Virus record (IMG/VR): IMGVR_UViG_3300044731_000789
Coordinates: 1-64,000 of that record
Strand: one strand, 5' to 3'
Length of the DNA: 64,000 nucleotides
Source of the DNA: a virus
The notes below the pieces were generated by a model. It had not been told where the DNA came from. It worked only from the letters and a program-made list of their open reading frames with translations, and ran no database searches. The position numbers and the translations under genes were made by a program. Shown here piece by piece: positions 2,929-35,465 of this stretch. Numbering within the stretch: the stretch's first letter is position 1; every line of letters starts with the position of its first letter.

Positions 2929-3065
2929 TACCCAGGGGAACTGGGGAATTAACGGACGTGGAGATTATTAGCTCTGGCTTCGCAACTTCGTTGCTTGGTG
3001 AAACTATGGTCAATGAACCGTCAATTTGTTAAATTGCGTATTTTAGTGAGCTAACAAACTTTCAA
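2929..3065 (+). ncRNA. Stand-alone TnpB omega-RNA (reRNA) scaffold; predicted guide starts at 3066
   Basis: 2929-3028 is 85/100 identical (ungapped) to the reverse complement of 31634-31733 at the tnpB 3' end, with compensatory changes; ends in TTCAA like IS605-family right ends; no tnpB ORF adjacent. Confidence 0.8.
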
Positions 3066-3066
3066 T

Positions 3067-3074
3067 AATAAATA
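3067..3074 (+). promoter_or_regulatory. Late promoter (gp23)
   Basis: AATAAATA; 3068-3084 is identical to 2085-2101; GAGGA RBS precedes the gp23 ATG. Confidence 0.7.
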
Positions 3075-3104
3075 ATATTATAAATTTAAACTAAAGAGGA
3101 TAAC

Positions 3105-4686: not shown

Positions 4687-6472
4687 ATTTCTTTCGCCAT
4701 TCTAATTTTAATTTACCGCAATCATATATTCTATATATTCTGTTATAAATTGCTAATTCATGTTCTGTCATTGTTTCATCATATTTTAGTTTTGGATCAT
4801 TTTTAAATCTGTTTTTTCTAAATCCGAACTTATGTTTCCTTTCATCGTTATGGACATATGTATAATCGACAGGCAATCTATCAACAATATAGAAACCATT
4901 TTCTAAATAAGATTCTCCAGTAAACATTTGCAAATCAACAAATGTGTGGATTATATCTAATTTAGAATTTTTCACCAATTTGCTCAACCCACCAACCACT
5001 TTGCATGATGTGGTATACCTAGTTAAAATGTTGCCATTGAACAACATTGCTGCAACAATTTCTCCATTATACTCAAGACAAACATTATATGAATGTACCG
5101 CATACCCTTGGATATGGTATTTCACAAAGAACTTAGTCAAAAATTCTTTCCCAACATTATATAAAACGTTGCATTTCCTGGCAAAAATGCTTATATCATC
5201 ACATTTACCAATAGAATTTTTGATAAATCTTTTAACTATATCAAACCTATCAACAATATCATCTTCATATATATGAATCAATCTTATACCAAGATTTGAA
5301 CACATATCTGTTTTCATTTTGTGATATGTTGATAATTTGTATACTTCTGAATGCCAATATACACCATTTATTTCAAACGCAATATTTTTTTCTGGTATAA
5401 TAATATCTAATTCATATGGAGATATTATTTGTTTAGTGCTATATTCATATGTAACATCTAATGAATCTAAATAATCCCTAATTTTATATTCATATGTAGA
5501 AACTGTATTATCGATTCGTATTTCTATACCATGTCCAGTCAAATATCTGGAAACACATGAGTCAGTACATTTTAAAATAGCGCAAATATCATATGTGGAT
5601 AATTTATTTGTCACATATTGCTCATACATCCAGTCTCTATTATTTAATAAATCCCATGCAAATTTTCCAAGTCTTGTTTCAGAACCTGATCTAACTGGTA
5701 TATTATGTTTATTCAAATAATTTCTAACTGTTCTTTGTGAGCAACCTAGTTCCAAAGCAATTGCGTCCATAGATACCCAATTCACACAATATGCTTTATA
5801 CAACCACAAAAAACTTGATAATTTTTCAATAGCATTTTTGCTTAATTGGTTTTCGGTTCCATTTCTTAACGGAATACCATATTGTTTTATATATTTCAGA
5901 ACAATACCTGTACCACATCCACATATAGAACTTATATCAGATGATGAATATTGTTCCAAAATATATTTCTCATATAACCAATCATATTGTTCCAATGTAT
6001 TTGATAAATCAACTTGACAACAATTATATTGAATTTCTTTTATGCCATGTTTTGAAATCCATTTAGATATAGTTGGGTGAGAAACTCCTAATTCATTTGC
6101 TATATTTTCTTTGGATTTCTTATTTACAATCCTTTGGGTATATAACCAATCTTTATCTTTAAGTTTATCCATAATATTTTTGTTCAATCTTGGTGTAGAT
6201 TGTCTACACAAATCTGAACAAAATCTATTAAACCCAAGTTTGTTGTTTCTCGCGTTTACTGATGTATTACCACCACAATGTTCGCATTTTGGTATATCAT
6301 GAATATTATTTTTGACACAATATATTCTTAGTGAATAAGTTGGTGTTAAACTATTGAGAAATGATGTTTCATCCAACAATTTTGAAACAATTTCTTGTTT
6401 AGACTGTGATAGACTTATTGCAGATTTATTCTCACATAAGTCTATCACATATTGACTATATTTTTTATCCAT
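4685..6472 (-). CDS. Hef/Vsr-like PD-(D/E)xK homing endonuclease with four tandem HTH repeats
   Basis: ELDIIIPEKNIAFEINGVYWHSE...GIRLIHIYEDD nuclease motif; four DWLY...IA.ELG.S...I..HGI-type repeats; N-terminal CxxC. Confidence 0.75.
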   Translation of the reverse strand: MDKKYSQYVIDLCENKSAISLSQSKQEIVSKLLDETSFLNSLTPTYSLRIYCVKNNIHDIPKCEHCGGNTSVNARNNKLGFNRFCSDLCRQSTPRLNKNIMDKLKDKDWLYTQRIVNKKSKENIANELGVSHPTISKWISKHGIKEIQYNCCQVDLSNTLEQYDWLYEKYILEQYSSSDISSICGCGTGIVLKYIKQYGIPLRNGTENQLSKNAIEKLSSFLWLYKAYCVNWVSMDAIALELGCSQRTVRNYLNKHNIPVRSGSETRLGKFAWDLLNNRDWMYEQYVTNKLSTYDICAILKCTDSCVSRYLTGHGIEIRIDNTVSTYEYKIRDYLDSLDVTYEYSTKQIISPYELDIIIPEKNIAFEINGVYWHSEVYKLSTYHKMKTDMCSNLGIRLIHIYEDDIVDRFDIVKRFIKNSIGKCDDISIFARKCNVLYNVGKEFLTKFFVKYHIQGYAVHSYNVCLEYNGEIVAAMLFNGNILTRYTTSCKVVGGLSKLVKNSKLDIIHTFVDLQMFTGESYLENGFYIVDRLPVDYTYVHNDERKHKFGFRKNRFKNDPKLKYDETMTEHELAIYNRIYRIYDCGKLKLEWRKK

Positions 6473-6475
6473 CTA

Positions 6476-6913
6476 TTAAATCTTGCACCAACTGTGAACT
6501 TTCCTTTTCCCGTTATACGGGACAGCCATTTTTTGGGCAATCATTTGGTCAGAAACACTCTGACCATCTTGCCACACATCGCAATCAATTCTGGAGCCAT
6601 ATTTGTCCCATGTGCATGCGGTAAGGGTTACATATTTTCCATCTAACATATTGGTCAAATATTCTTTGGCAGAGACTGCCCAAATTTTTTCCCCAGTGCA
6701 TTTCCCATGAATTTCTGGAGAATCTATGCCAAGAATTCTAACAGATATATGGGACAAATTTTCTGGTAAACCAGACATGGTTATCATAAAAGTGTCTCCA
6801 TCATATACTCGATCAACTTTGGCAACAATTGGCACATCCTTTGCCAGAACATTGCCAATCATGGATGCCAATAGTAGCAACAAATAAATTATCCGCACAG
6901 CAATTGACTCCAT
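6476..6913 (-). CDS. Thermonuclease (SNase-like) with signal peptide
   Basis: RVYDGDT, VRILGIDSPE, DKYGSR motifs; hydrophobic N-terminus. Confidence 0.88.
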   Translation of the reverse strand: MESIAVRIIYLLLLLASMIGNVLAKDVPIVAKVDRVYDGDTFMITMSGLPENLSHISVRILGIDSPEIHGKCTGEKIWAVSAKEYLTNMLDGKYVTLTACTWDKYGSRIDCDVWQDGQSVSDQMIAQKMAVPYNGKRKVHSWCKI

Positions 6914-18867: not shown

Positions 18868-19893
18868 ATGAAAATATGCCTATTAGGCGATTGCCATTTC
18901 TGTTACAAAAATTCATTTAATGAATATTACAAAAAGTTTTATTCACAAGTCTTTTTTCCCTATCTTGAAGCAAATAATATAAAAACAGTTGTTCAATTTG
19001 GTGACATTTTTGATAATCGTTCCAAATTGGATATTATTGGTTTAGAATTTGCTAATATGGAATTCTTTTCAAAATTCACCGATGCGATAAGATTGGTTAC
19101 ATTACTTGGTAATCATGATATTGTTAAGAAAAACACCTTGAAACATAATTCACCAAACGTTGCTATAGATAGCTCATATTGGGTGAATATTGTTTCCAAA
19201 CCATTTGGATTTGGAAACTGTCTTATTATACCATGGATATGTGAAGAAAATTCTGCAGAAATATTTTCGGCAATCGAAAAAACTAGCTGCAAATTTTTGT
19301 TTGCTCATTTGGAATTATCTGGATTTGAAATGAATAGGGGCTATATAATGGAAAATGGACATGATCCAAAACTCTTTTCGAAGTTCGAAAAAGTGTTTTC
19401 AGGCCATTATCATTGTCCAAGTTCTGGTGGAAATGTTGTGTACCTTGGTACACCATATGAACTGACTTTTTCGGATTGTGATGATCAAAAATATTTTTAC
19501 ATATTTGATACAGAAACTGGTGATTTGGAAGCAATACCAAATCCATACAAAATGTTTCACAAAATTGTCTACAATGAGGGATCGGATTACGATCTAAGTT
19601 CTGTAGAAAATTGTATTGTGAAAGTTATTGTTGAAGCAAAAACTGATCAAATGAAGTATGATATTTTCATGAAAACGTTGACAGAATGTAATCCAATGGA
19701 ATTAAAAGTTGTTGAAAACTTTGAGCAATTTGGTGATGAAAAAATAGATGTTGACAATATTGATATTTCTGATACACTATCTTTGTTATCAAAATATGTG
19801 GAAGAGACTTCCATGGATATTGATAAAGGATATATGAAAAATATATTGAATGATCTTTATAATGATGCGATAAAATTGGAATATGGTGAATAA
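18868..19893 (+). CDS. gp47: Recombination endonuclease (Mre11-like)
   Basis: LGDCHF, QFGDIFDNR, LGNHD, HLELSGF, FSGHYH, YLGTPY. Confidence 0.95.
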   Translation: MKICLLGDCHFCYKNSFNEYYKKFYSQVFFPYLEANNIKTVVQFGDIFDNRSKLDIIGLEFANMEFFSKFTDAIRLVTLLGNHDIVKKNTLKHNSPNVAIDSSYWVNIVSKPFGFGNCLIIPWICEENSAEIFSAIEKTSCKFLFAHLELSGFEMNRGYIMENGHDPKLFSKFEKVFSGHYHCPSSGGNVVYLGTPYELTFSDCDDQKYFYIFDTETGDLEAIPNPYKMFHKIVYNEGSDYDLSSVENCIVKVIVEAKTDQMKYDIFMKTLTECNPMELKVVENFEQFGDEKIDVDNIDISDTLSLLSKYVEETSMDIDKGYMKNILNDLYNDAIKLEYGE

Positions 19894-20149: not shown

Positions 20150-21871
20150 ATGATAAAATTTACACGAGTATTTTATAAAAATTTCTTATCAAGTGGTTCC
20201 GGTGGAACAGAAATTTTTTTAGATAAAACATCTTCATCACTATTGGTTGGTCGGAATGGTTCAGGCAAAAGTTCCATGATTGACGCAATATGCTTTGCAT
20301 TATTCAACAAATCTTTCCGAAATTTATCAAAACCAAAAATTGTAAACTCTAAAAACAAAAAACAATGCCTCTGCGAAGTAAACTTCGAAATTGGTACAAA
20401 ACAGTATCTAGTAAAAAGAGGCATCAAACCAGATATTTTTGAAATTTGGATCGATAATGAAATGGTCGATCAATCTGCAAAAAAGTTTGATTACCAGGAA
20501 TATCTTGAACAACAAATTTTACAATTAAACTATAAATCTTTTACTCAGATTGTAATACTTGGTTCCAGGGCATATACACCATTTATGGAACTAAAGACTG
20601 GTCCAAGACGAGAAGTGATAGAAGATTTGTTGGATTTGACAATTTTTTCAAAAATGAATTTGGTATTAAAGGAACGTATCAAATCTTTGACAGATTCTGT
20701 CCAGAAGTTGGATACAAAAATTGATTCATTATATAATACAAAATCACTTAAAGAAAAATATGTTCAGCAAGCTGAAAAACAAAATCAATCAATTGAAGAA
20801 AGTATTATATCAAATATTGATACAACCAATACAAAATTATCACAAGTAGAACAAAATTTAGAAAAGAATAAACAAGAATTTGAAAGACTTCTTTCAGAAT
20901 TGGTTACAGATAGTAGACCATTAGAAAAGAAACTGAATAAATTTGTTGAAATACGTGGTGGTATTTTAAGTAATAAAACCAATCATACAAAGATTGTACA
21001 ATTTTATAGTAAATATGATTCTTGTCCAACATGTAACCAAGAAATTGATGAAGAATTCAAATCTGGCTTAATACTTGATTCCACATCAAAATTGGAATCA
21101 TATGAAGCAGGATTGGTCGATCTAAATGCAAAAATAGATTTGCATCAAAAACAGGTAAGAGAAATTAATAACAATGCAGCAATTCTTACCAATTTGCAAT
21201 CAACTATTAGAAATTTTGAACACCATAAGGAAACACTGTTATATCAATTGAAACAATATGAAAAACAGTTGACAGATGCACAAAATAGGAATACAATAGA
21301 TACCAATACCGAGAAAAACGAGATTGCTCAGTTACTGAGCCAAATTGAAGAATATACTGCAGAAAAGGATAGTTTGGAATATTCCAAAAAGTATTTGAAT
21401 ATGTCTGGAAAATTGTTGAAAGATGATGGCATCAAAACCATGATTATTTCACAATATTTGCCAGTTATAAACAAATTGATCAATCATTATCTTACAGTAA
21501 TGGATTTCTTTGTATCATTTAATTTTGATGAAAATTTTGACGAAATAATTAAATCCAGACATAGGGACAATTTTTCATACGCCAACCTATCAGAAGGCGA
21601 GAAGATGAGGGTGAATTTATCGATACTGTTTACATTTAGAAAGATTGCATCATTGAAAAATACTTGTAATACTAATTTGTTGATATTGGACGAAATTGCA
21701 GATTCAGTCTTGGACTCAGATGGAATAGAAATTTTGACCCAAATTTTGAAAGAGTTTGAAGACAATAATGTCTTTATGATTTCCCACAAAGATGAAATGA
21801 TGGATAAATTTGATAGAACATTGAAATTTTTTAAACAAAATGATTACTCAATTATGGAGGAAATTGGTTGA
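20150..21871 (+). CDS. gp46: Recombination ATPase (Rad50-like)
   Basis: GRNGSGKS, CPTC zinc hook, LSEGEKMR, LLILDE. Confidence 0.96.
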   Translation: MIKFTRVFYKNFLSSGSGGTEIFLDKTSSSLLVGRNGSGKSSMIDAICFALFNKSFRNLSKPKIVNSKNKKQCLCEVNFEIGTKQYLVKRGIKPDIFEIWIDNEMVDQSAKKFDYQEYLEQQILQLNYKSFTQIVILGSRAYTPFMELKTGPRREVIEDLLDLTIFSKMNLVLKERIKSLTDSVQKLDTKIDSLYNTKSLKEKYVQQAEKQNQSIEESIISNIDTTNTKLSQVEQNLEKNKQEFERLLSELVTDSRPLEKKLNKFVEIRGGILSNKTNHTKIVQFYSKYDSCPTCNQEIDEEFKSGLILDSTSKLESYEAGLVDLNAKIDLHQKQVREINNNAAILTNLQSTIRNFEHHKETLLYQLKQYEKQLTDAQNRNTIDTNTEKNEIAQLLSQIEEYTAEKDSLEYSKKYLNMSGKLLKDDGIKTMIISQYLPVINKLINHYLTVMDFFVSFNFDENFDEIIKSRHRDNFSYANLSEGEKMRVNLSILFTFRKIASLKNTCNTNLLILDEIADSVLDSDGIEILTQILKEFEDNNVFMISHKDEMMDKFDRTLKFFKQNDYSIMEEIG

Positions 21872-26397: not shown

Positions 26398-26808
26398 ATG
26401 AATTCGGTGCCAATGATGTTAGATCGGATAAATTCCTCACTATTAAATACAAGCAACTTGATAAAAAATATTGGCTATTGTTTTGCCAGAACAGAAAAAC
26501 ATTTATTAGACAGAATTAATGATAGATCAATAGATAAAGTTGATGTGATTACAACTATTTCGTATTTAACTAATAAAAAATTGTGTGAATTTATATATAA
26601 CCTAGAACATAACGAATCTGAATTTGTTAGTTTTGGTATTCAATATGATCAAGATTTTGTTATAGTTGGAACATGTAGAAAAAATAATAATATTGGATAT
26701 AATATTATCAAATTTAATACGGTGGTCAAATATCCATGCAAAAGCGTATTACATCAAGGTGGGTTTATATTAAAAATTAATAAATTGATTAGAAAGGTGA
26801 ATATATGA
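26398..26808 (+). CDS. Hypothetical protein
   Basis: GGAG RBS before ATG 26398; downstream of a promoter. Confidence 0.6.
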   Translation: MNSVPMMLDRINSSLLNTSNLIKNIGYCFARTEKHLLDRINDRSIDKVDVITTISYLTNKKLCEFIYNLEHNESEFVSFGIQYDQDFVIVGTCRKNNNIGYNIIKFNTVVKYPCKSVLHQGGFILKINKLIRKVNI

Positions 26809-28078: not shown

Positions 28079-30565
28079 TTGGAGTTCTATACAAGTGTCA
28101 GAAAACTTGGTAAAAATATTCTATACAGGGGAATAGATGAATATGGTAATCGTGTATGTGAAAAAGTTGAATATTCCCCAACATTATATGTGGAAGATAA
28201 TGTTGGGGAATGTATTCATAAATCAATGCATAAACTCCCACTTAAACCCATTAAATTTTTGAACATACCAGATGCAAATGAATTTATATCATCATATGAT
28301 TCAATTGAAAATTTCTCAATATATGGGGAAAAACGGTATGAATATTCTTTTATTAGTGAATTATTTAAGGGAAACATCCACCCAGATTATTCAAAAGTTT
28401 TAATATACAAACTGGACATTGAAACCAAATTAGATTTGAATGAAGGATTCCCATATCCTGCACAGTGTAGAGAAGAAATTTCATTAATCACTATAACAAA
28501 TTCTATTACAAAAAGGGTTACAACATTTGGTACGTTTGTTTATGATAATAGGGATAATGTTAATTTCATATATTGCATCAATGAAACACAACTACTAAAA
28601 CACTTTTTACAATTTTGGGTAAGTTCTTACCCAGATATTATTACAGGATGGTTTTCAAAAGGATTTGATATACCGTATCTATACAGAAGAATGGTAAAAG
28701 TTCTGGGGGAAAAACATGCAAAGAGATTGTCACCATTTAATTGGGTCAATGAAAGTGTGTCAGTAACCGACAAAGGAATGGAAGAATTTGAATATGACAT
28801 ATATGGAATCGATCATATCGATTACAGGGATTTGTACAAAAAATCTATTCAAGACCCAAGAGAATCATACAAACTAGATGAAATCGCCTTTATTGAATTG
28901 GGCGAACGAAAAGTTGAAAATCCATATGATACATTCAAAGAATTTTATGTAAACGATCCCAGTTTGTTTGTGTCATATAACATTCAAGATACAGTATTAT
29001 TAGATAGATTAGAAGACAAACTTAGATTACTTGGTAACATAATGTTTGTTGCATATAAGTGTAAAATAAATTTTTCAGATGCAATGTCTCCGGTTAGAAC
29101 CTGGGAAATTCTTATATACAACCATTTGTTGTCAAAGAATATCATAACACCCTTGGGTAAGTCTGGAGCACCAGTGCTAGATTTTGCTGGGGGATATGTT
29201 AAACATCCTGTTATTGGTAAACATAATTGGGTGGTGACATGGGATGTCAATTCTATGCATCCTCATATTATTATGAATTATAATATATCGCCAGAAACAA
29301 TGTTGAATACACCAGTTAAAAAGTTTTCTATCGATGATTTATTATACAAGACAGTAAATTTGGACAATATTGATGGAATAATGTCAGCTAATGGTGTGCA
29401 ATATTCAAAAGAGTTTGAAGGTATTTTACCAGAACTAATGTCAACATTTTATGCAGAAAGGCAATCAATTCAAGCAGAATTGAAACCCATGAAGAAAATT
29501 GATAACCCATCATCTGACATATTGGATAAAATCCGTATGATGGATGTGGCCCAAAATGGTATAAAGATTGGTATTCTTAATTCTGGGTATGGTGCATTAG
29601 GCAATAAACATTTTAAATATTTTGACACCAGATTGGCGGAAGCTGTTACACTAGGTAGCCAAATTGCTATCCGTTGGGTTGGCACTGCCATCAATGAATA
29701 TTTGAATAAGGTTTGTAAAACTGTTGATGAAGAATATTTCATATATGCTGACACGGATAGCAATTTTTTGAAATTTGAAAAATTTGTTGAATTGTACTGC
29801 CAAGGAATGACTGATAGAGAAATATCTGACACATTGAGTAAGGTATCGGAAGACAAAATTATTCCATTGATTGAGAAAAAATTTAATGAATTGGCTCAAT
29901 ACATGAAATGTAATGAAAACAGATTAAAAATGTCAAGAGAAAATATTGCAAAATCTGTTTTTTTCAGGGGGGCAAGAAATTATGCAATGGCTGTTGTTGA
30001 CCAAGAAGGTAAAAAGTATGATCCCCCAAAAATGAAAATAGCTGGGTTAGAATGTGTTAAAAGTTCTACTCCAAAAATTGCAAGAGAATACCTTAAAAAA
30101 TGTGTTGAATTGATATTATTGGACTCAATTGAATCTGTAAGAGAATATGAACAATCTGCAAAACAAGATTTTTATTCAAAATCTGTTCAAGAAATTGCTT
30201 TACCTAGAAGTGTAAATGGTGTGGAAAAATATTCTGATCCAACAACTTTGTATAAATCACGATGCCCTATTGCCGTTAGGGGGGCAATATTGCATAATTA
30301 TTATGTTACAAAACATAATTTACAAAATAAATATCAAATGATAAATGATGGAGACAAAATAAAATTTGCCTATCTAAAGTTACCAAACCCAATTAGGGAA
30401 AATGTTATTTCATGGAATGGAAAAATTCCCCATGAAATAATTCTTGACAATATGTTTGATTATGATATAATGTATTCCAAAGCATTTATTGGACCGCTTG
30501 AATCAATGCTTGATTGTGTCGGATGGGATTTGAAACACAAATTTAATATTTTAGACTTTTTTTGA
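28079..30565 (+). CDS. gp43: Family B DNA polymerase with atypical motifs
   Basis: DIET, FDIPY, YNIQD exonuclease motifs; GGYV, DVNSMHP, NSGYG, YADTDS, GLE..KSSTP; TTG start with GGGGAG RBS. Confidence 0.95.
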   Translation: MEFYTSVRKLGKNILYRGIDEYGNRVCEKVEYSPTLYVEDNVGECIHKSMHKLPLKPIKFLNIPDANEFISSYDSIENFSIYGEKRYEYSFISELFKGNIHPDYSKVLIYKLDIETKLDLNEGFPYPAQCREEISLITITNSITKRVTTFGTFVYDNRDNVNFIYCINETQLLKHFLQFWVSSYPDIITGWFSKGFDIPYLYRRMVKVLGEKHAKRLSPFNWVNESVSVTDKGMEEFEYDIYGIDHIDYRDLYKKSIQDPRESYKLDEIAFIELGERKVENPYDTFKEFYVNDPSLFVSYNIQDTVLLDRLEDKLRLLGNIMFVAYKCKINFSDAMSPVRTWEILIYNHLLSKNIITPLGKSGAPVLDFAGGYVKHPVIGKHNWVVTWDVNSMHPHIIMNYNISPETMLNTPVKKFSIDDLLYKTVNLDNIDGIMSANGVQYSKEFEGILPELMSTFYAERQSIQAELKPMKKIDNPSSDILDKIRMMDVAQNGIKIGILNSGYGALGNKHFKYFDTRLAEAVTLGSQIAIRWVGTAINEYLNKVCKTVDEEYFIYADTDSNFLKFEKFVELYCQGMTDREISDTLSKVSEDKIIPLIEKKFNELAQYMKCNENRLKMSRENIAKSVFFRGARNYAMAVVDQEGKKYDPPKMKIAGLECVKSSTPKIAREYLKKCVELILLDSIESVREYEQSAKQDFYSKSVQEIALPRSVNGVEKYSDPTTLYKSRCPIAVRGAILHNYYVTKHNLQNKYQMINDGDKIKFAYLKLPNPIRENVISWNGKIPHEIILDNMFDYDIMYSKAFIGPLESMLDCVGWDLKHKFNILDFF

Positions 30566-30572
30566 GGTTGGT

Positions 30573-30956
30573 ATGAGTGTAAAAATTTTCGATAACATGA
30601 TTGGTAAAATCGTAACGACCATTCATGGTAATATTGGCGATGAGGTTATAGAATTTGTTACAACAGATGGGTCAAAATTTATTTTTTCACATGAACCAGA
30701 TTGTTGTGAATCTGTTTACATTGAGGATATATGCGGCGATCTAATAGATTTAATTGGTTCGCCAATTACCATGGCGGAAGAGGTATCTAATATTGACGAA
30801 CCAAAATTACCATCGGACAATTATGCACAAGAATCATACACATGGACATTTTACAAATTTGGCACCAATCGTGGGACAGTAACTGTCCGATGGTTTGGGG
30901 AAAGCAATGGGTGCTATTGTGAAGAACCGCAATATAGAGAATTTTTAACACAGTGA
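30573..30956 (+). CDS. Conserved phage hypothetical protein
   Basis: DCCESVYIEDICGDL, SYTWTFYK, RW.GESNG motifs. Confidence 0.7.
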   Translation: MSVKIFDNMIGKIVTTIHGNIGDEVIEFVTTDGSKFIFSHEPDCCESVYIEDICGDLIDLIGSPITMAEEVSNIDEPKLPSDNYAQESYTWTFYKFGTNRGTVTVRWFGESNGCYCEEPQYREFLTQ

Positions 30957-31414
30957 GAAAAATGATGGAATTTATTGAGAAAGTAAAGTTATTTAATGCA
31001 ATTGCCGGTCAACCGGAAGAATTTAACCCAAGAAAAATTGCATTATATGTTGGATTAATTTGTGAAGAATTTGCTGAAATTATTGATTCATTTGATTCTG
31101 GAGAATTGGCAGAATTAGCAGATACATTAGACGACTTTTCATTGCGGTTTAAGTCAGGTGCTTATGATAATTTGGCAGCAAAAGTGGATTGCGTAGAATT
31201 TTTGGATGGGTGTATAGATGTTGCCGTAGTAGCAACTGGTGCTGCAATCTGTGTTGGCGCAGATATTGTGCCAGCTTTTCATCATATTGCTGACAATAAT
31301 TTGTCAAAATATAATTTAGTCGATGGTGAATATGTAGTGCTTCGTGACGAAAACGGCAAAATTATGAAACCAAGTAATTACCAAAAACCAAACCTTGCGC
31401 CATTCTTTAAATAA
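30953..31414 (+). CDS. MazG-like / PRA-PH-like NTP pyrophosphohydrolase
   Basis: LICEEFAE, EFLDGCIDV, NNLSK, RDENGKIMKP. Confidence 0.75.
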   Translation: MRKMMEFIEKVKLFNAIAGQPEEFNPRKIALYVGLICEEFAEIIDSFDSGELAELADTLDDFSLRFKSGAYDNLAAKVDCVEFLDGCIDVAVVATGAAICVGADIVPAFHHIADNNLSKYNLVDGEYVVLRDENGKIMKPSNYQKPNLAPFFK

Positions 31415-31415
31415 T

Positions 31416-31571
31416 ATGTCAAATAAATTCACCTGTGCAGATTTGCATCTTGGGCACAAAAATATTATTGATTTTACTTATCCAAATTCGGATCAAAGAT
31501 TTCGCCCATTTGAATCTGTTCAAGAACATGATCAGATTCTGATAGATAATTGGAACAAGGTAGTTGGCCCA
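31416..31571 (+). pseudogene. Metallophosphoesterase truncated by the tnpB element
   Basis: ADLHLGHKNII...RPFESVQEHDQILIDNWNKVVGP breaks where the GD motif should follow; junction coincides with the omega-RNA 3' end. Confidence 0.8.
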
Positions 31572-31733
31572 TTGGAATTTCGCAGGGATTCTGAGTTAAC
31601 TCAACATCGTGATTGAGCTAACATGAACCATTGCAAATTGACATGTCATCCATACTGGTTTCACCAAGCAACGAAGTTGCGAAGCCAGAGCCAATTATGT
31701 CTATGTCCGTTAATTTCCCAGTTCCCCTGGGTA
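31572..31733 (-). ncRNA. cis omega-RNA of tnpB; predicted guide TGGGCCAACTACCTTG (31571 downward)
   Basis: Overlaps the tnpB 3' end; nested stems; terminal GTTAGCTCAA/TTGAGTTAAC hairpin; reRNA-like layout; homologous to 2929-3065. Confidence 0.8.
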
Positions 31734-32864
31734 TTTGTTCGGTATTCCTAGATCAGATAAGCCTCTGGCTAGAATATTTTTAGCAGCATTTAAGTCTCGG
31801 TCATGGAAAGTATTGCAGGAACTGCAAGTCCATTCCCGAATATGTAAAGACATTGGTGTTTCATGTCTATGACCACAAACATTGCAGTCTCTGCTAGTAT
31901 AATTGGGGTTGACCTTCAAGAATGTTCTTCCGTACCATTTGGATTTATATTCCAATAACCGGAAGAAATCAGACCATGAAGCATCAGCTATAGATCGAGA
32001 TAATCTTTTGTTTTTCAAAAGATTCTTGATTTTTAAGTCTTCTACGATAATAACATCGTTGGATTTTACTATCTTATAAGATAATTTGTGTAGAAAGTCC
32101 GAACGGGAGTTCGATACTTTCTGGTAGATCAGAGCAACTGCTTTACGTTTCTTTTCTCGTCTATTAGATTCTTTTTTGGAACGAGACAAAGCACGTTGGG
32201 AACGTTTAAGTGCTTTTAGTTTTTTCTTTAGAAATCGTGGATTCTCAACAGAATTTCCGTTGGAATCATAAAGAAAGACTTTTAAACCAGCATCAATACC
32301 AATAATATTATTGGTGGCTGGAAATAAATCTACTTGACATTCTACAGAAAACGATATATGATACTTACCAGTGGCATCCAATGAAACAGTTGCCATTTTG
32401 GGTATCCCAGGAAATTCATGGGATACTTTAATTTTAACAGCACCTAGTTTTGGTAGTTTAAGAACTCCGTCCTTAAGGACAATATCCTGCATACGCACGG
32501 ATTTCTTGTTATACTTAGATTTGAATGTTGGTAAACCGGCTTTATTGGAACCTTTTGGTTTCTTTAAATCCCTAAAGAAATTAGAATACGCACTATTTAG
32601 GTCTAATAGTGATTGCCGTAGGCAAGTGCTAGGAACGTCAGATAACCAGTTAAAGTCTTCTTGTTTCTTTAAGATCGTAAGATCAGCAGATAACTGGTTG
32701 TTTGTTAGAGTGATACCTTGTTCTTTATAGGTATCACGTTTTAGTTTAAGATAATGGTTATAGACAAACCTTGAGCAACCAAACATTTTGTTTAGTAGTA
32801 TCTTTTGTTGTTGGTTAGGATAAAACCTAACCTTGAAAGATTTGTTTATAGTATTTTTGTTCAT
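31710..32864 (-). CDS. tnpB: RNA-guided endonuclease TnpB
   Basis: KVRFYPN...FGCSRFVYN N-terminus; RuvC GID, VEDL, DRDLNAA intact; CxxC..CxxC zinc finger. Confidence 0.96.
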   Translation of the reverse strand: MNKNTINKSFKVRFYPNQQQKILLNKMFGCSRFVYNHYLKLKRDTYKEQGITLTNNQLSADLTILKKQEDFNWLSDVPSTCLRQSLLDLNSAYSNFFRDLKKPKGSNKAGLPTFKSKYNKKSVRMQDIVLKDGVLKLPKLGAVKIKVSHEFPGIPKMATVSLDATGKYHISFSVECQVDLFPATNNIIGIDAGLKVFLYDSNGNSVENPRFLKKKLKALKRSQRALSRSKKESNRREKKRKAVALIYQKVSNSRSDFLHKLSYKIVKSNDVIIVEDLKIKNLLKNKRLSRSIADASWSDFFRLLEYKSKWYGRTFLKVNPNYTSRDCNVCGHRHETPMSLHIREWTCSSCNTFHDRDLNAAKNILARGLSDLGIPNKYPGELGN

Positions 32865-32870
32865 TACAAT

Positions 32871-32878
32871 TATTTATC
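32871..32878 (-). promoter_or_regulatory. Late-promoter-like box 6 nt before the tnpB ATG
   Basis: GATAAATA-ATTGTA-ATG on the minus strand; no SD. Confidence 0.55.
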
Positions 32879-33391
32879 AAAAAAGGAATGTATGCCAATA
32901 GAATATTGCAACCATGCTAATGATTTGATTGAGTGCCCAGGCGCTCACAACTACGCTTCGCTAAACACTACGCTGCGCGCTTCGCTGGGGGGTCGTCAGG
33001 CATCCCTGCCTTCCTTCGATGAAATTAATAGATTAAAAAATAAAAATGCTGCTCTTGTCGATGCATTGCTAGAATTGATGACTTACCATCCACGAGAATA
33101 TTGGGAAGGTGTTGGAGCGAACTTGTATAGAAAAACTGCTGGTTCTGCAATATCGAAAACACTGGATAAATGTGATGTGGCATTAAGCTATGGTGGTGAA
33201 GTAAAATGATGATTGATGAAGTGGAGATATGTGAATAATGAGATTTAAAGCTATTTGGATTGCAATTACTAGACCACAATATGTAATAACATGTGATCAA
33301 GGGATGACTTTATTAAAAGAAATTTGGAATTGGACAACATATAAAAACACACCTTGGTACAAAAATACTGAACAAGTATTGAAACAATATT

Positions 33392-33949
33392 ATGATAAGT
33401 AATCCATTCCATGATCTACCACATGTGATAGATTTCTTTAAAACAGAACAAGAAGCACATAATGAACGAATACAAAGGATACATAACTTAGTAAATGATT
33501 TTGTATCATTAGGTTCAGCATATCGAGTTAGAAAACAATATACTGTCTCAGACATGCTGAGAAAAGTATTGGAAAGTAATGATATAAAAGTTATTCAATC
33601 AAAAAATGGTATGAAAGATTTGGTTGAATTTGGCATATTGTTTAGTAAATGTATAAACAATATTGGGACAATATATCAAACATCCGATGTATTAAATTAT
33701 ATTAAATCCACAGATACATATATAACAACCATCAAAAAATACCATTATTCAATTATAACTGAATATATTTTATGTTATAGATATTTTTATAACATACAGC
33801 AAAAAGAAATCGCAGAAAATATTGAAACGGTTTTAGTAAATAATAATATTAAAATAATATATGGCACATGTATGTTTAATGGTTGGGATAATATTCCAAA
33901 AATATATAGGGGTGATTTTGGACACGACACTTTTGAGGTAATAAAATGA
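33392..33949 (+). CDS. Hypothetical protein with a CysRS anticodon-binding-domain-like segment
   Basis: RVRKQYTVSDMLRKVLESNDIKVIQSKNG; a weaker second repeat follows. Confidence 0.5.
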   Translation: MISNPFHDLPHVIDFFKTEQEAHNERIQRIHNLVNDFVSLGSAYRVRKQYTVSDMLRKVLESNDIKVIQSKNGMKDLVEFGILFSKCINNIGTIYQTSDVLNYIKSTDTYITTIKKYHYSIITEYILCYRYFYNIQQKEIAENIETVLVNNNIKIIYGTCMFNGWDNIPKIYRGDFGHDTFEVIK

Positions 33950-34362
33950 AAACAATTACAAGAACAAGCGAAATTTATGTTGCCGATGACGGCAAAATTT
34001 TTGATGACAGCAATCTATGCTGGAATTATGATGTAACACTAAAAACCTATTGGTTTCGTTTAACGAAACCAGATTGGACAACAGATTTGTATAAAATTGT
34101 TGGAACAGAAAAATTTGTTGATAGTAATATTTCACAATTTTTACGAAAAAAATATGGCCCGATGTTCGGGGCAGAGAATGGGCAAATTGTGCAAAAATAT
34201 AGTATAGATATGTTGCACCAACTTACTTTCCAGGCTATCCTGGACAATGACGAGTATATGGACTTTTATACGCTCCGCGTATCAGATTTGGGGCTAGGAT
34301 TTGAACTAAATACCACATGTGAATTGTTCGATCAATCGAACCAGAATTTGGAGAATTTGTGA
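33946..34362 (+). CDS. Hypothetical protein
   Basis: GAGG RBS; YVADDGKIFD phage-type N-terminus. Confidence 0.6.
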   Translation: MKTITRTSEIYVADDGKIFDDSNLCWNYDVTLKTYWFRLTKPDWTTDLYKIVGTEKFVDSNISQFLRKKYGPMFGAENGQIVQKYSIDMLHQLTFQAILDNDEYMDFYTLRVSDLGLGFELNTTCELFDQSNQNLENL

Positions 34363-35465
34363 GCTTATTAGACAAGATTAAGAAAAATAGTACAATTAAA
34401 GAAGTAGAAATACTGGCAACCAGTAAGTATTTTACAAATAAGGATATGGTACAGATTCCTGTGCCAGCACTTAATATTGCATTAAGTGGTAGTTTAAGTG
34501 GTGGATTGACTCCAGGGTTAACACAGATAGTTGGAGAATCAAAACATTTTAAATCTACAATTATGCTTATTATGGCCAAAGCATACTTGGATAAGTATAA
34601 AGATGCAGTGATTTTGTTTTATAATAACGAATTTGGCGCTGGTCCAGCAATGTTTGAATCATTAGGTATTGATACAAATAGAGTTGTACACGTACCATTT
34701 ATGGATTTGGAGCAATTTACACTAGATGTTATGTCCCAATTAGATGGGATAGAACGTGGAGACAAAGTAATTATAATTGTTGACTCATTGGGTCAAGCTG
34801 CTTCAAAAAAAGAGGCACAAGATGCTTTGGATGGAAAATCTAAAGAAGATATGAGTCGGCCAAAAAAAATGAAAGGAATGAGTAGAATGATTACTCCATA
34901 CTTGAACCTTAAAGATGTTCCAATGCTTGCAGTTAATCATGTATATTCAACACAAGATTTGTTTTCAAAAAAGGTTGTTAGTGGTGGACAGGGGTTATAT
35001 TTGGCTAGTGATAATATCATAATGATGGGAAGACAGCAAGAAAAAGAAGGAACAGATGTTGTTGGGTACAAATTTGTTATGAATATTGAGAAAGGTAGAT
35101 ATACAAAAGAAAAATCGAAAATCCCATTGACTGTATCATTTGATGGTGGAATTTCTACATGGTCTGGTTTGTTGGATATTGCACTGGAAAATGGTTTTGT
35201 TACAAAACCATCAAATGGCTGGTATACCAGACCAAAATTTGATTTAGATGGTAAAAAATATAGGGAAAGGGATACGGATACAAAGGATTTTTGGTTGCCA
35301 GTATTGATGGATAAAGCGTTTCAACAAGCAGTGGAGCAAAAATATAAACTATTTACTGGAGACAAAAAACTTTTGCATGATGATAATATGTATGAAACAT
35401 ATGCAGATATGAATATTGAAATTGATTATGAAACTGGAGAAATCCTTGGAGAAACTGATGAGTAA
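34359..35465 (+). CDS. uvsX: RecA-like recombinase
   Basis: LNIALSG, GESKHFKS, IVDSLG..ASKKE, VSGGQG, GWY. Confidence 0.95.
   Translation: MSLLDKIKKNSTIKEVEILATSKYFTNKDMVQIPVPALNIALSGSLSGGLTPGLTQIVGESKHFKSTIMLIMAKAYLDKYKDAVILFYNNEFGAGPAMFESLGIDTNRVVHVPFMDLEQFTLDVMSQLDGIERGDKVIIIVDSLGQAASKKEAQDALDGKSKEDMSRPKKMKGMSRMITPYLNLKDVPMLAVNHVYSTQDLFSKKVVSGGQGLYLASDNIIMMGRQQEKEGTDVVGYKFVMNIEKGRYTKEKSKIPLTVSFDGGISTWSGLLDIALENGFVTKPSNGWYTRPKFDLDGKKYRERDTDTKDFWLPVLMDKAFQQAVEQKYKLFTGDKKLLHDDNMYETYADMNIEIDYETGEILGETDE

Follow-up and report, generated by a model that had tools for sequence, protein, structure and literature searches.

Can a tnpB gene that stands in a phage genome without a transposase gene beside it spread by homing, or does it move by transposition? 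The question is raised by a TnpB-only element of the IS200/IS605 family in a stretch of 64,000 nucleotides (nt) of DNA, hereafter the window, which comprises positions 1 to 64,000 of the virus record IMGVR_UViG_3300044731_000789 in IMG/VR. TnpB is established as a homing nuclease for transposon retention; its RNA-guided homing has been shown in this role in bacteria and argued for plasmids, and is still a proposal for lytic phages. The window makes up the opening 64 kb of a record of 76.2 kb whose CheckV completeness is about 43%, and the searches of 76 kb described below covered this whole record, i.e. about 43% of the phage genome.

We conclude that the element, which codes for no protein but TnpB, is probably a non-autonomous representative of the IS1341 group (IS200/IS605 family, ISDra2 clade) and would direct RNA-guided homing against intact alleles of the phosphoesterase gene that it interrupts, with a transposase acting in trans. 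The locus brings together an intact nuclease and scaffold, a defined guide, a deduced YCATY adjacent motif, natural intact and interrupted alleles in the same lakes, a second empty site and recombination genes.

The nuclease, its RNA scaffold and the ends of the element

The tnpB product carries an N-terminal helix-turn-helix, a split RuvC domain with its D-E-D triad and a zinc ribbon, as expected of the IS200/IS605 family, and matches the Pfam entries HTH_OrfB_IS605 (PF12323), OrfB_IS605 (PF01385) and the Cas12f1-like TNB (PF07282). Residues 7-375 align with the ISDra2 TnpB structures 8H1J, 8BF8 and 8EXA (E ~1e-84). The RuvC motifs GIDAG, IIVEDL and HDRD and the CxxC...CxxC pattern are retained, and D191, E275, D357, C327, C330, C347 and C350 are invariant in an alignment with the 11 closest homologues; a first-pass annotation, made from the letters alone, had rightly called both the triad and the zinc finger intact. 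The protein can thus be regarded as an intact ISDra2-clade TnpB that is presumably active as a nuclease. A TldR-type, nuclease-dead regulator was ruled out by the intact triad. The nearest relatives are metagenome proteins with 50-58% identity. Across 185,579 species of bacteria and archaea, each represented by a single genome, the best match was only 45% identical, so that no host copies were identified. Viral relatives align at the DNA level in the coding part alone and are uninformative on the ends of the element.

Neither a Y1 transposase, nor a serine recombinase, nor a second tnpB was found in the 76-kb record, and the 153 nt upstream of tnpB hold no transposase. The search for a Y1 or serine transposase in the rest of the genome, which had been proposed with the first-pass annotation, has thereby been made over the 76.2-kb record; the element remains transposase-less in cis, and for 43% of the genome. 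The gene is indeed antisense to the surrounding operon, since its open reading frame (ORF) lies on the minus strand and its neighbours (gp43 polymerase, nucleoside triphosphate (NTP) pyrophosphohydrolase, UvsX and gp41) on the plus strand.

The 3' part of the transcript appears to be structured. Minus-strand RNA from 31572..31790 (219 nt) folds at -60.2 kcal/mol (z = -2.6 against shuffles), the 162-nt scaffold alone at -48.4 kcal/mol, and the right end forms a strong 11-bp hairpin. Over the scaffold core, the second, protein-less copy in the record is identical at 85/100 nt in a gap-free alignment. Ten of the 15 differences fall in predicted pairs and pairing is kept in all, four pairs being altered on both sides and two on one side. 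A covariance model built from both copies (R1) gave eight further matches at rough E-values of 0.002 to 0.05, in seven bacterial loci and one viral locus, all at tnpB 3' ends and on the coding strand; the copy at 2929..3028 scores 174 bits. The fold, the compensated pairs and the position of the R1 matches together argue that 31572..31733 is a genuine omega-RNA scaffold. No Rfam family matches it, and its 24-nt core is absent from the genome contigs and viral contigs searched. An IStron or group I intron was considered and rejected: no intron family in Rfam matches 30500..34000 at E-values up to 1, and the element is antisense to the interrupted genes.

In the second copy, the 3' tail (to ~3090) has diverged, folds at only -2.9 kcal/mol and has no stable 3' hairpin, so that this copy may be a remnant. 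Its tail runs into AATAAATA and the Shine-Dalgarno region of the gp23-like capsid gene.

The left end was located through a related insertion. The element had been thought to end at 32880; comparison with the metagenome protein P0134 and with an empty site places its end at 33017, where the element strand begins GAAGGAAGG. A chimeric ORF runs outward across this boundary. Its residues 41-98 match the small conserved proteins P0133 (59%), P0135, P0139 and P0140, the native part beginning at 33018, and its residues 1-43 match P0134 at 77%. P0134 has 97 residues, on a contig of 1656 nt, and in its remaining 56 residues shares 98% identity with the C-terminal part of the window's SNase-like gene. 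With one half corresponding to a read-out of the left end and the other to the SNase-like C-terminus, P0134 indicates that this SNase-like gene harbours a related copy of the element in a sibling strain; the 42 shared codons are an antisense read-out of the left end. The empty site in the SNase-like gene is also written CCATC then TAACATATTGG. Searches for the left-end peptide in viral contigs gave no confirmed match, and tblastn of the 105-residue ORF against the phage collection gave none.

Several further observations concern the left end. It contains an outward-facing ATG with an AAGGA Shine-Dalgarno-like box (window 32892-33020), and in both known insertions this ATG is in frame with the truncated downstream gene, which here acquires a new N-terminus of 42 residues. 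At the two extremities of the element, the outermost ~20 nt on the left and ~22 nt on the right form imperfect inverted repeats that share GCAGGGAT / ATCCCTGC (33002-33009 and 31582-31589); terminal inverted repeats are atypical of IS200/IS605 elements. Two GCGAAGC motifs are also present (plus strand GCTTCGC, 32955-32961 and 32979-32985). The GC-rich part (32930..33015) was considered as a REP-like or multicopy repeat and dismissed: P0132, P0137 and P0138 are repetitive proteins matched by chance, whereas P0134 is informative.

Guide, adjacent motif and history of the locus

At the right end, the interrupted gene can be compared with intact 183-residue phosphoesterase alleles from metagenomes: P0124, P0141 and P0142. 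P0141 and P0142 read NWNKVVGP and then NDTTY, so that Gly51 is native and homology to the window ends exactly after Pro52 (31571). The omega-RNA had been proposed to end right after the Pro codon of NWNKVVGP, and the intact alleles agree; the guide, the 16 nt of minus-strand flank TGGGCCAACTACCTTG, is as it was first read from the sequence. The earlier description of a broken phosphoesterase is correct for codons 1-52. The remainder does not lie across the element, and the 131 C-terminal codons are nowhere in 76 kb.

No other guide site with fewer than 4 mismatches occurs in 76 kb, and the element's own copy of the guide sequence is preceded by the element end, TTCCAA, and not by the adjacent motif. 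The right-end junction is spanned without change in contigs of three independent lake runs. One X12-run contig ends exactly at 31571, a weak hint of a branch to another allele; none of the lake-run contigs joins across the element, so no empty site was seen among them.

The adjacent motif is YCATY, seen at three sites: it was deduced independently from two left-end flanks, with TCATC at the flank here and CCATC at the sibling site, and is matched by TCATT in the intact allele of L083, which has 86% identity. L083 and L084 are syntenic relatives obtained in a metagenome scan with P0124, among which the closest alleles are not included; L083, whose phosphoesterase is the 86% allele, has 76-83% nucleotide identity to the window and lacks the element. 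On its antisense strand, TCATT stands immediately 5' of the position that matches the guide, and Asn53-Asp54 of all intact alleles constrain the same motif bases. YCATY occupies 0.7% of positions in the phage genome, and its presence exactly at the junction is good evidence that a canonical motif-dependent event, of the kind seen at the left end, probably also produced the right-end junction. The flanks show no target-site duplication.

The ISDra2 motif TTGAT does occur on the minus strand at 32879..32875, overlapping GATAAATA. It was rejected as the motif of this element. In ISDra2 TnpB, TTGAT is read by Y52, K76, F77, Q80, T123 and N124 (PMC10097598); here the first four are replaced (N55/S79/T80/R83), a deletion of 4 residues has removed T123/N124, and the element's actual left end is 140 nt further out.

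Table 1. Positions of the element, its parts and related sites
Feature	Position	Strand	Basis or remark
Whole TnpB-only IS200/IS605-family element, 1446 bp	31572..33017	-	End of phosphoesterase homology; comparison of P0134 with empty site
tnpB ORF, 384 aa (amino acids)	31710..32864	-	Pfam, ISDra2 structures, homologue alignment
Left end, 153 nt	32865..33017	-	GC-rich (~50%) stretch and GATAAATA octamer (32871..32878)
Omega-RNA scaffold, 162 nt	31572..31733	-	Overlaps last 7 tnpB codons and stop; ends at right end
Predicted guide segment, 16 nt, TGGGCCAACTACCTTG	31556..31571	-	Antisense of phosphoesterase codons 47-52
Transposon-adjacent motif TCATC	33018..33022	-	Left-end flank
Calcineurin-like phosphoesterase remnant, codons 1-52 of 183	31416..31571	+	98% identical to P0124 over 52 residues
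Chimeric ORF, 105 aa	32892..33206	+	42 left-end codons in frame with phage gene minus first ~4 codons
SNase-like gene, intact in window	6476..6913	-	Target of sibling insertion, break after 6643
Empty site of sibling insertion	6639..6659	+	CCATC then TAACATATTGGTCAAA
Partial protein-less scaffold copy	2929..3028	+	Between gp22-like and gp23-like genes; blastn 85%
gp47-like gene	at 18868		Recombination repair
gp46-like gene	at 20150		Recombination repair
UvsX gene	34359..35465		Uninterrupted in window

The element sits in the replication/recombination module of a T4-like phage from fresh water that has not been cultured, with plus-strand genes for SbcD/gp47-like and SbcC/gp46-like proteins, an RNA ligase, gp43 polymerase, the NTP pyrophosphohydrolase, UvsX and a DnaB/gp41-like helicase. 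Near-identical DNA was found in lake-water and freshwater metagenomes of 16 studies (2020 to 2025), and a DNA search of the phage collection with the whole region, for near and distant relatives, returned no matching record. In L083 the phosphoesterase is followed by a 117-aa and then a 55-aa ORF; the window has 52 phosphoesterase codons, the element, the small P0133-like gene minus ~4 codons and a 54-aa ORF. A search among homologues for the small gene in its native form returned the chimera alone. With 131 phosphoesterase codons gone from 76 kb, the locus is not the product of simple insertion but of insertion plus loss or replacement. It could have been reached by recombination between two copies, by a transposase-made adjacent deletion, or by co-conversion or block import from another phage.

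The neighbourhood differs between relatives in other ways. Just upstream of the phosphoesterase, the window has a nucleotide pyrophosphohydrolase (30953-31414) where L083 instead has a non-alignable, MazG-like gene of 121 aa (4986-5351), which marks the neighbourhood as a variable slot. In L083 (7384-9887), UvsX is split after ~210 codons by an intein-like insert (CLDGETKI ... IIAHNS) holding a separate 343-aa ORF, and ~400 nt of the window (26402-26804) are missing from both L083 and L084.

The element and related copies or remnants occupy three sites in this lineage: the phosphoesterase gene, the SNase-like gene and 2929..3028. They point to real transposition, and so to a transposase in trans, besides any homing. 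Such elements thus appear to transpose within phage genomes, and 'transposase-less' is not the same as 'homing only'. The locus is polymorphic for presence and absence, with the intact P0124, P0141 and P0142 and the element-free L083 on one side and the interrupted allele on the other; junction ORFs were found on 12 contigs, against 3 contigs with intact alleles. All 12 junction contigs look like one phage, TnpB variants differ by 1-2 residues, and the exact junction pattern occurs in none of the viral contigs.

Expression, homing and competing explanations

On the minus strand, tnpB is preceded by GATAAATA (32878..32871), followed by ATTGTA and then by the ATG, with no Shine-Dalgarno sequence. 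The first-pass annotation had seen in this arrangement the wiring of a late phage gene. The octamer does lie 6 nt ahead of the ATG, with no Shine-Dalgarno sequence between them, but it belongs to the left end of the element, 140 nt from the tip, is one base off TATAAATA, at the first base, and has an atypical gap. Octamers were counted on both strands of the 76 kb (152 kb), upstream meaning within 45 nt of an ORF. NATAAATA octamers are rare (35 in 152 kb). TATAAATA occurs 10 times, 6 times upstream of an ORF (gap 13-39 nt), and AATAAATA 16 times, again 6 times upstream (20-43 nt); one of 4 copies of CATAAATA is upstream (30 nt), as is one of 5 copies of GATAAATA, that of tnpB. The 6-nt gap of tnpB is an outlier, the 14 other candidate late promoters lying 13-43 nt from their ORFs. 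From the octamers before ORFs, it is likely that the phage uses T4-type late promoters; late, leaderless expression of tnpB itself is speculative. A sigma-70-like pair (TTGGCA-18-AATAAT) overlaps the GATAAATA region, and promoter-like sites are no commoner than in shuffles.

These features can be combined into a mechanism. The element, antisense in the module, adjoins phosphoesterase codon 52 at its right end and codon ~5 of the small conserved gene at its left end, both junctions at YCATY, with the DNA between two motif sites lost. Transcription of tnpB would start within the left end, and the omega-RNA would consist of the 162 nt at the 3' end of this transcript together with 16 nt of flank. 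The TnpB-RNA complex would cut where YCATY is joined to a guide match, i.e. in an intact phosphoesterase allele of a sibling or co-infecting genome, and the carrier would be immune because the element separates motif from target. Repair of the break by UvsX and gp46/gp47, with the carrier as template, would retain or spread the element. Its arrival, and insertions at other sites, would need a Y1 transposase acting in trans, which either the host or the 57% of the phage genome outside the record would supply. That TnpB is aimed at intact phosphoesterase alleles is structurally plausible, and homing, which the first-pass annotation had proposed, is a plausible reading of the intact nuclease and scaffold, of a guide antisense to codons 47-52 and of the motif in L083. 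UvsX and gp46/gp47-like genes, invoked there for repair, are present in the window.

A number of points weigh against this picture. The locus is not a clean insertion, as loss or replacement has affected 131 codons and probably more. The three sites imply that the element has transposed and would not owe its distribution to homing alone, and neither the element nor its junction was found in another phage background, among viral contigs or in the phage collection. The comparison with intact alleles that had been suggested could be made, in that P0124, P0141 and P0142 exist, but the readable allele, L083, differs from the guide at 7/16 positions and would escape cutting. For the closest alleles (P0141, P0124), a 16/16 guide match with the motif was deduced from protein identity and from the 86% allele L083. 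Folding of the left end as single-stranded DNA is no better than that of shuffles (z = 0.49), so that the ends do not establish Y1 mobilisation. Finally, RNA-library contigs span the region, but contigs do not reveal strand, start sites or genuine transcription. The sequence thus shows the anatomy of the element, its intact motifs, the RNA structure, the agreement of the adjacent motifs and the allele polymorphism, whereas nuclease activity, the promoter with its timing, homing and the origin of the transposase are inferred.

A stronger version of homing is possible, though doubtful: an RNA-guided gene drive at work between T4-like lake phages during co-infection, in which late, leaderless TnpB would cut YCATY-flanked alleles, and UvsX/gp46/gp47 would copy the element together with the slot gene, replacing the 3' part of the phosphoesterase, while the second scaffold may add a target. 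Such a drive would account for the excess of interrupted over intact alleles. If it is wrong, what is left is an ordinary insertion sequence in a dispensable phage gene. Unlikely, in our view, is the related proposal of a rewiring that has turned the element into a free-standing homing endonuclease gene of the phage, with a gp55-type late promoter at GATAAATA starting a leaderless mRNA at or next to the AUG and no role for a transposase. The octamer directly before an ATG without a Shine-Dalgarno sequence, the rarity of NATAAATA octamers and the placing of TATAAATA before ORFs in 6/10 cases, which makes T4-type late promoters probable, would suit it, as would the guide, motif and allele polymorphism, and the lost phosphoesterase 3' part with its different slot gene resembles co-conversion. 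Yet a box inside the left end is not phage wiring; its first base is off consensus, its gap is unique, a sigma-70-like pair overlaps the same place, copies or remnants at three sites need transposition beyond homing, and the check for tnpA covers only 43% of the genome.

It is less probable still that the element is an inert passenger in a dispensable gene of a successful phage clone, its tnpB frame open through recency only. Very low diversity, identical junctions in many lakes from 2020 to 2025, as in a clonal sweep, an activity of TnpB that is deduced and not observed, and a decayed second scaffold, a sign that such elements erode here, are what one would expect of a passenger. Intact catalytic residues, zinc ligands and RNA pairing are not, and the differences between scaffold copies that preserve pairing, the recent insertion of at least one more copy in a sibling strain and the excess of carrier over intact contigs (12 to 3) also argue otherwise. 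Very improbable is a domesticated anti-competitor or regulatory system, in which one TnpB would use two guide RNAs (the linked one and one from 2929..3090) and damage rivals or bind near the capsid gene promoter. The second scaffold does lie just upstream of the gp23-like gene and the promoter-like AATAAATA, pairing is kept between the copies, and an RNA-library contig carries a variant of the second copy at a depth of 17.5, although such contigs are no proof of transcription. However, this copy has no stable hairpin beside the guide position and its end cannot be placed, the compensatory differences may stem from a time at which each copy belonged to an active element, and the intact triad excludes a TldR-type repressor.

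Comparison with known systems

The closest well-studied relative is ISDra2 TnpB (8H1J, 8BF8, 8EXA; PMC8612924; PMC10097598), with which the element shares the three-domain protein, D-E-D triad and zinc ribbon, a scaffold that overlaps the 3' end of tnpB and extends as far as the right end, a guide of 16 nt supplied by the flank, an adjacent motif 5' of the left end and the absence of target duplication. Unlike ISDra2, it has no tnpA in cis, its protein of 384 aa has lost most of the dispensable C-terminal tail, the TTGAT readers are replaced and the deduced motif is YCATY, and the host replicon is a lytic-type T4-like phage.

TnpB-only IS200/IS605 elements of T4-like phages are not new: ISCaje1-3 were described in 2010 in the Campylobacter phages CP220 and CPt10 (PMC2853527). 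There, too, near-identical isoforms occupy different places in sibling genomes, as the phosphoesterase and SNase-like sites do here. The TnpB lineage of the present element is unrelated in sequence, with no hit in the phage collection, and comes from another host environment, and its guide, motif and empty site can be read. The copy at 2929..3028 resembles the protein-less omega-RNA or PATE-like derivatives of IS200/IS605 elements in that it keeps a paired scaffold core without an adjacent nuclease gene; unlike them, its 3' part is degenerate and no left end can be recognised, so that it is perhaps a remnant.

A 2026 review (PMC13565253) applies the term 'non-restorative homing' to the cleavage of orthologous sites that lack the insertion, in plasmids or phages that co-infect, and TnpB-driven spread without TnpA has been described in plasmids (PMC11870625). 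A literature search for non-restorative homing between lytic phages found no paper.

The free-standing homing endonuclease genes of T-even phages include those of the seg and mob groups. As with these, a nuclease gene lies here between conserved phage genes, some close relatives have it and others do not, the allele without the nuclease gene is the predicted target, and repair would be by phage recombination. In contrast to seg and mob genes, recognition would be by RNA and a 5-nt motif and not by protein, and the element has retained complete transposon ends and moved to other sites. In sum, neither its family nor the type of replicon is new, the element is ordinary within that family, and its layout is the one expected for RNA-guided homing.

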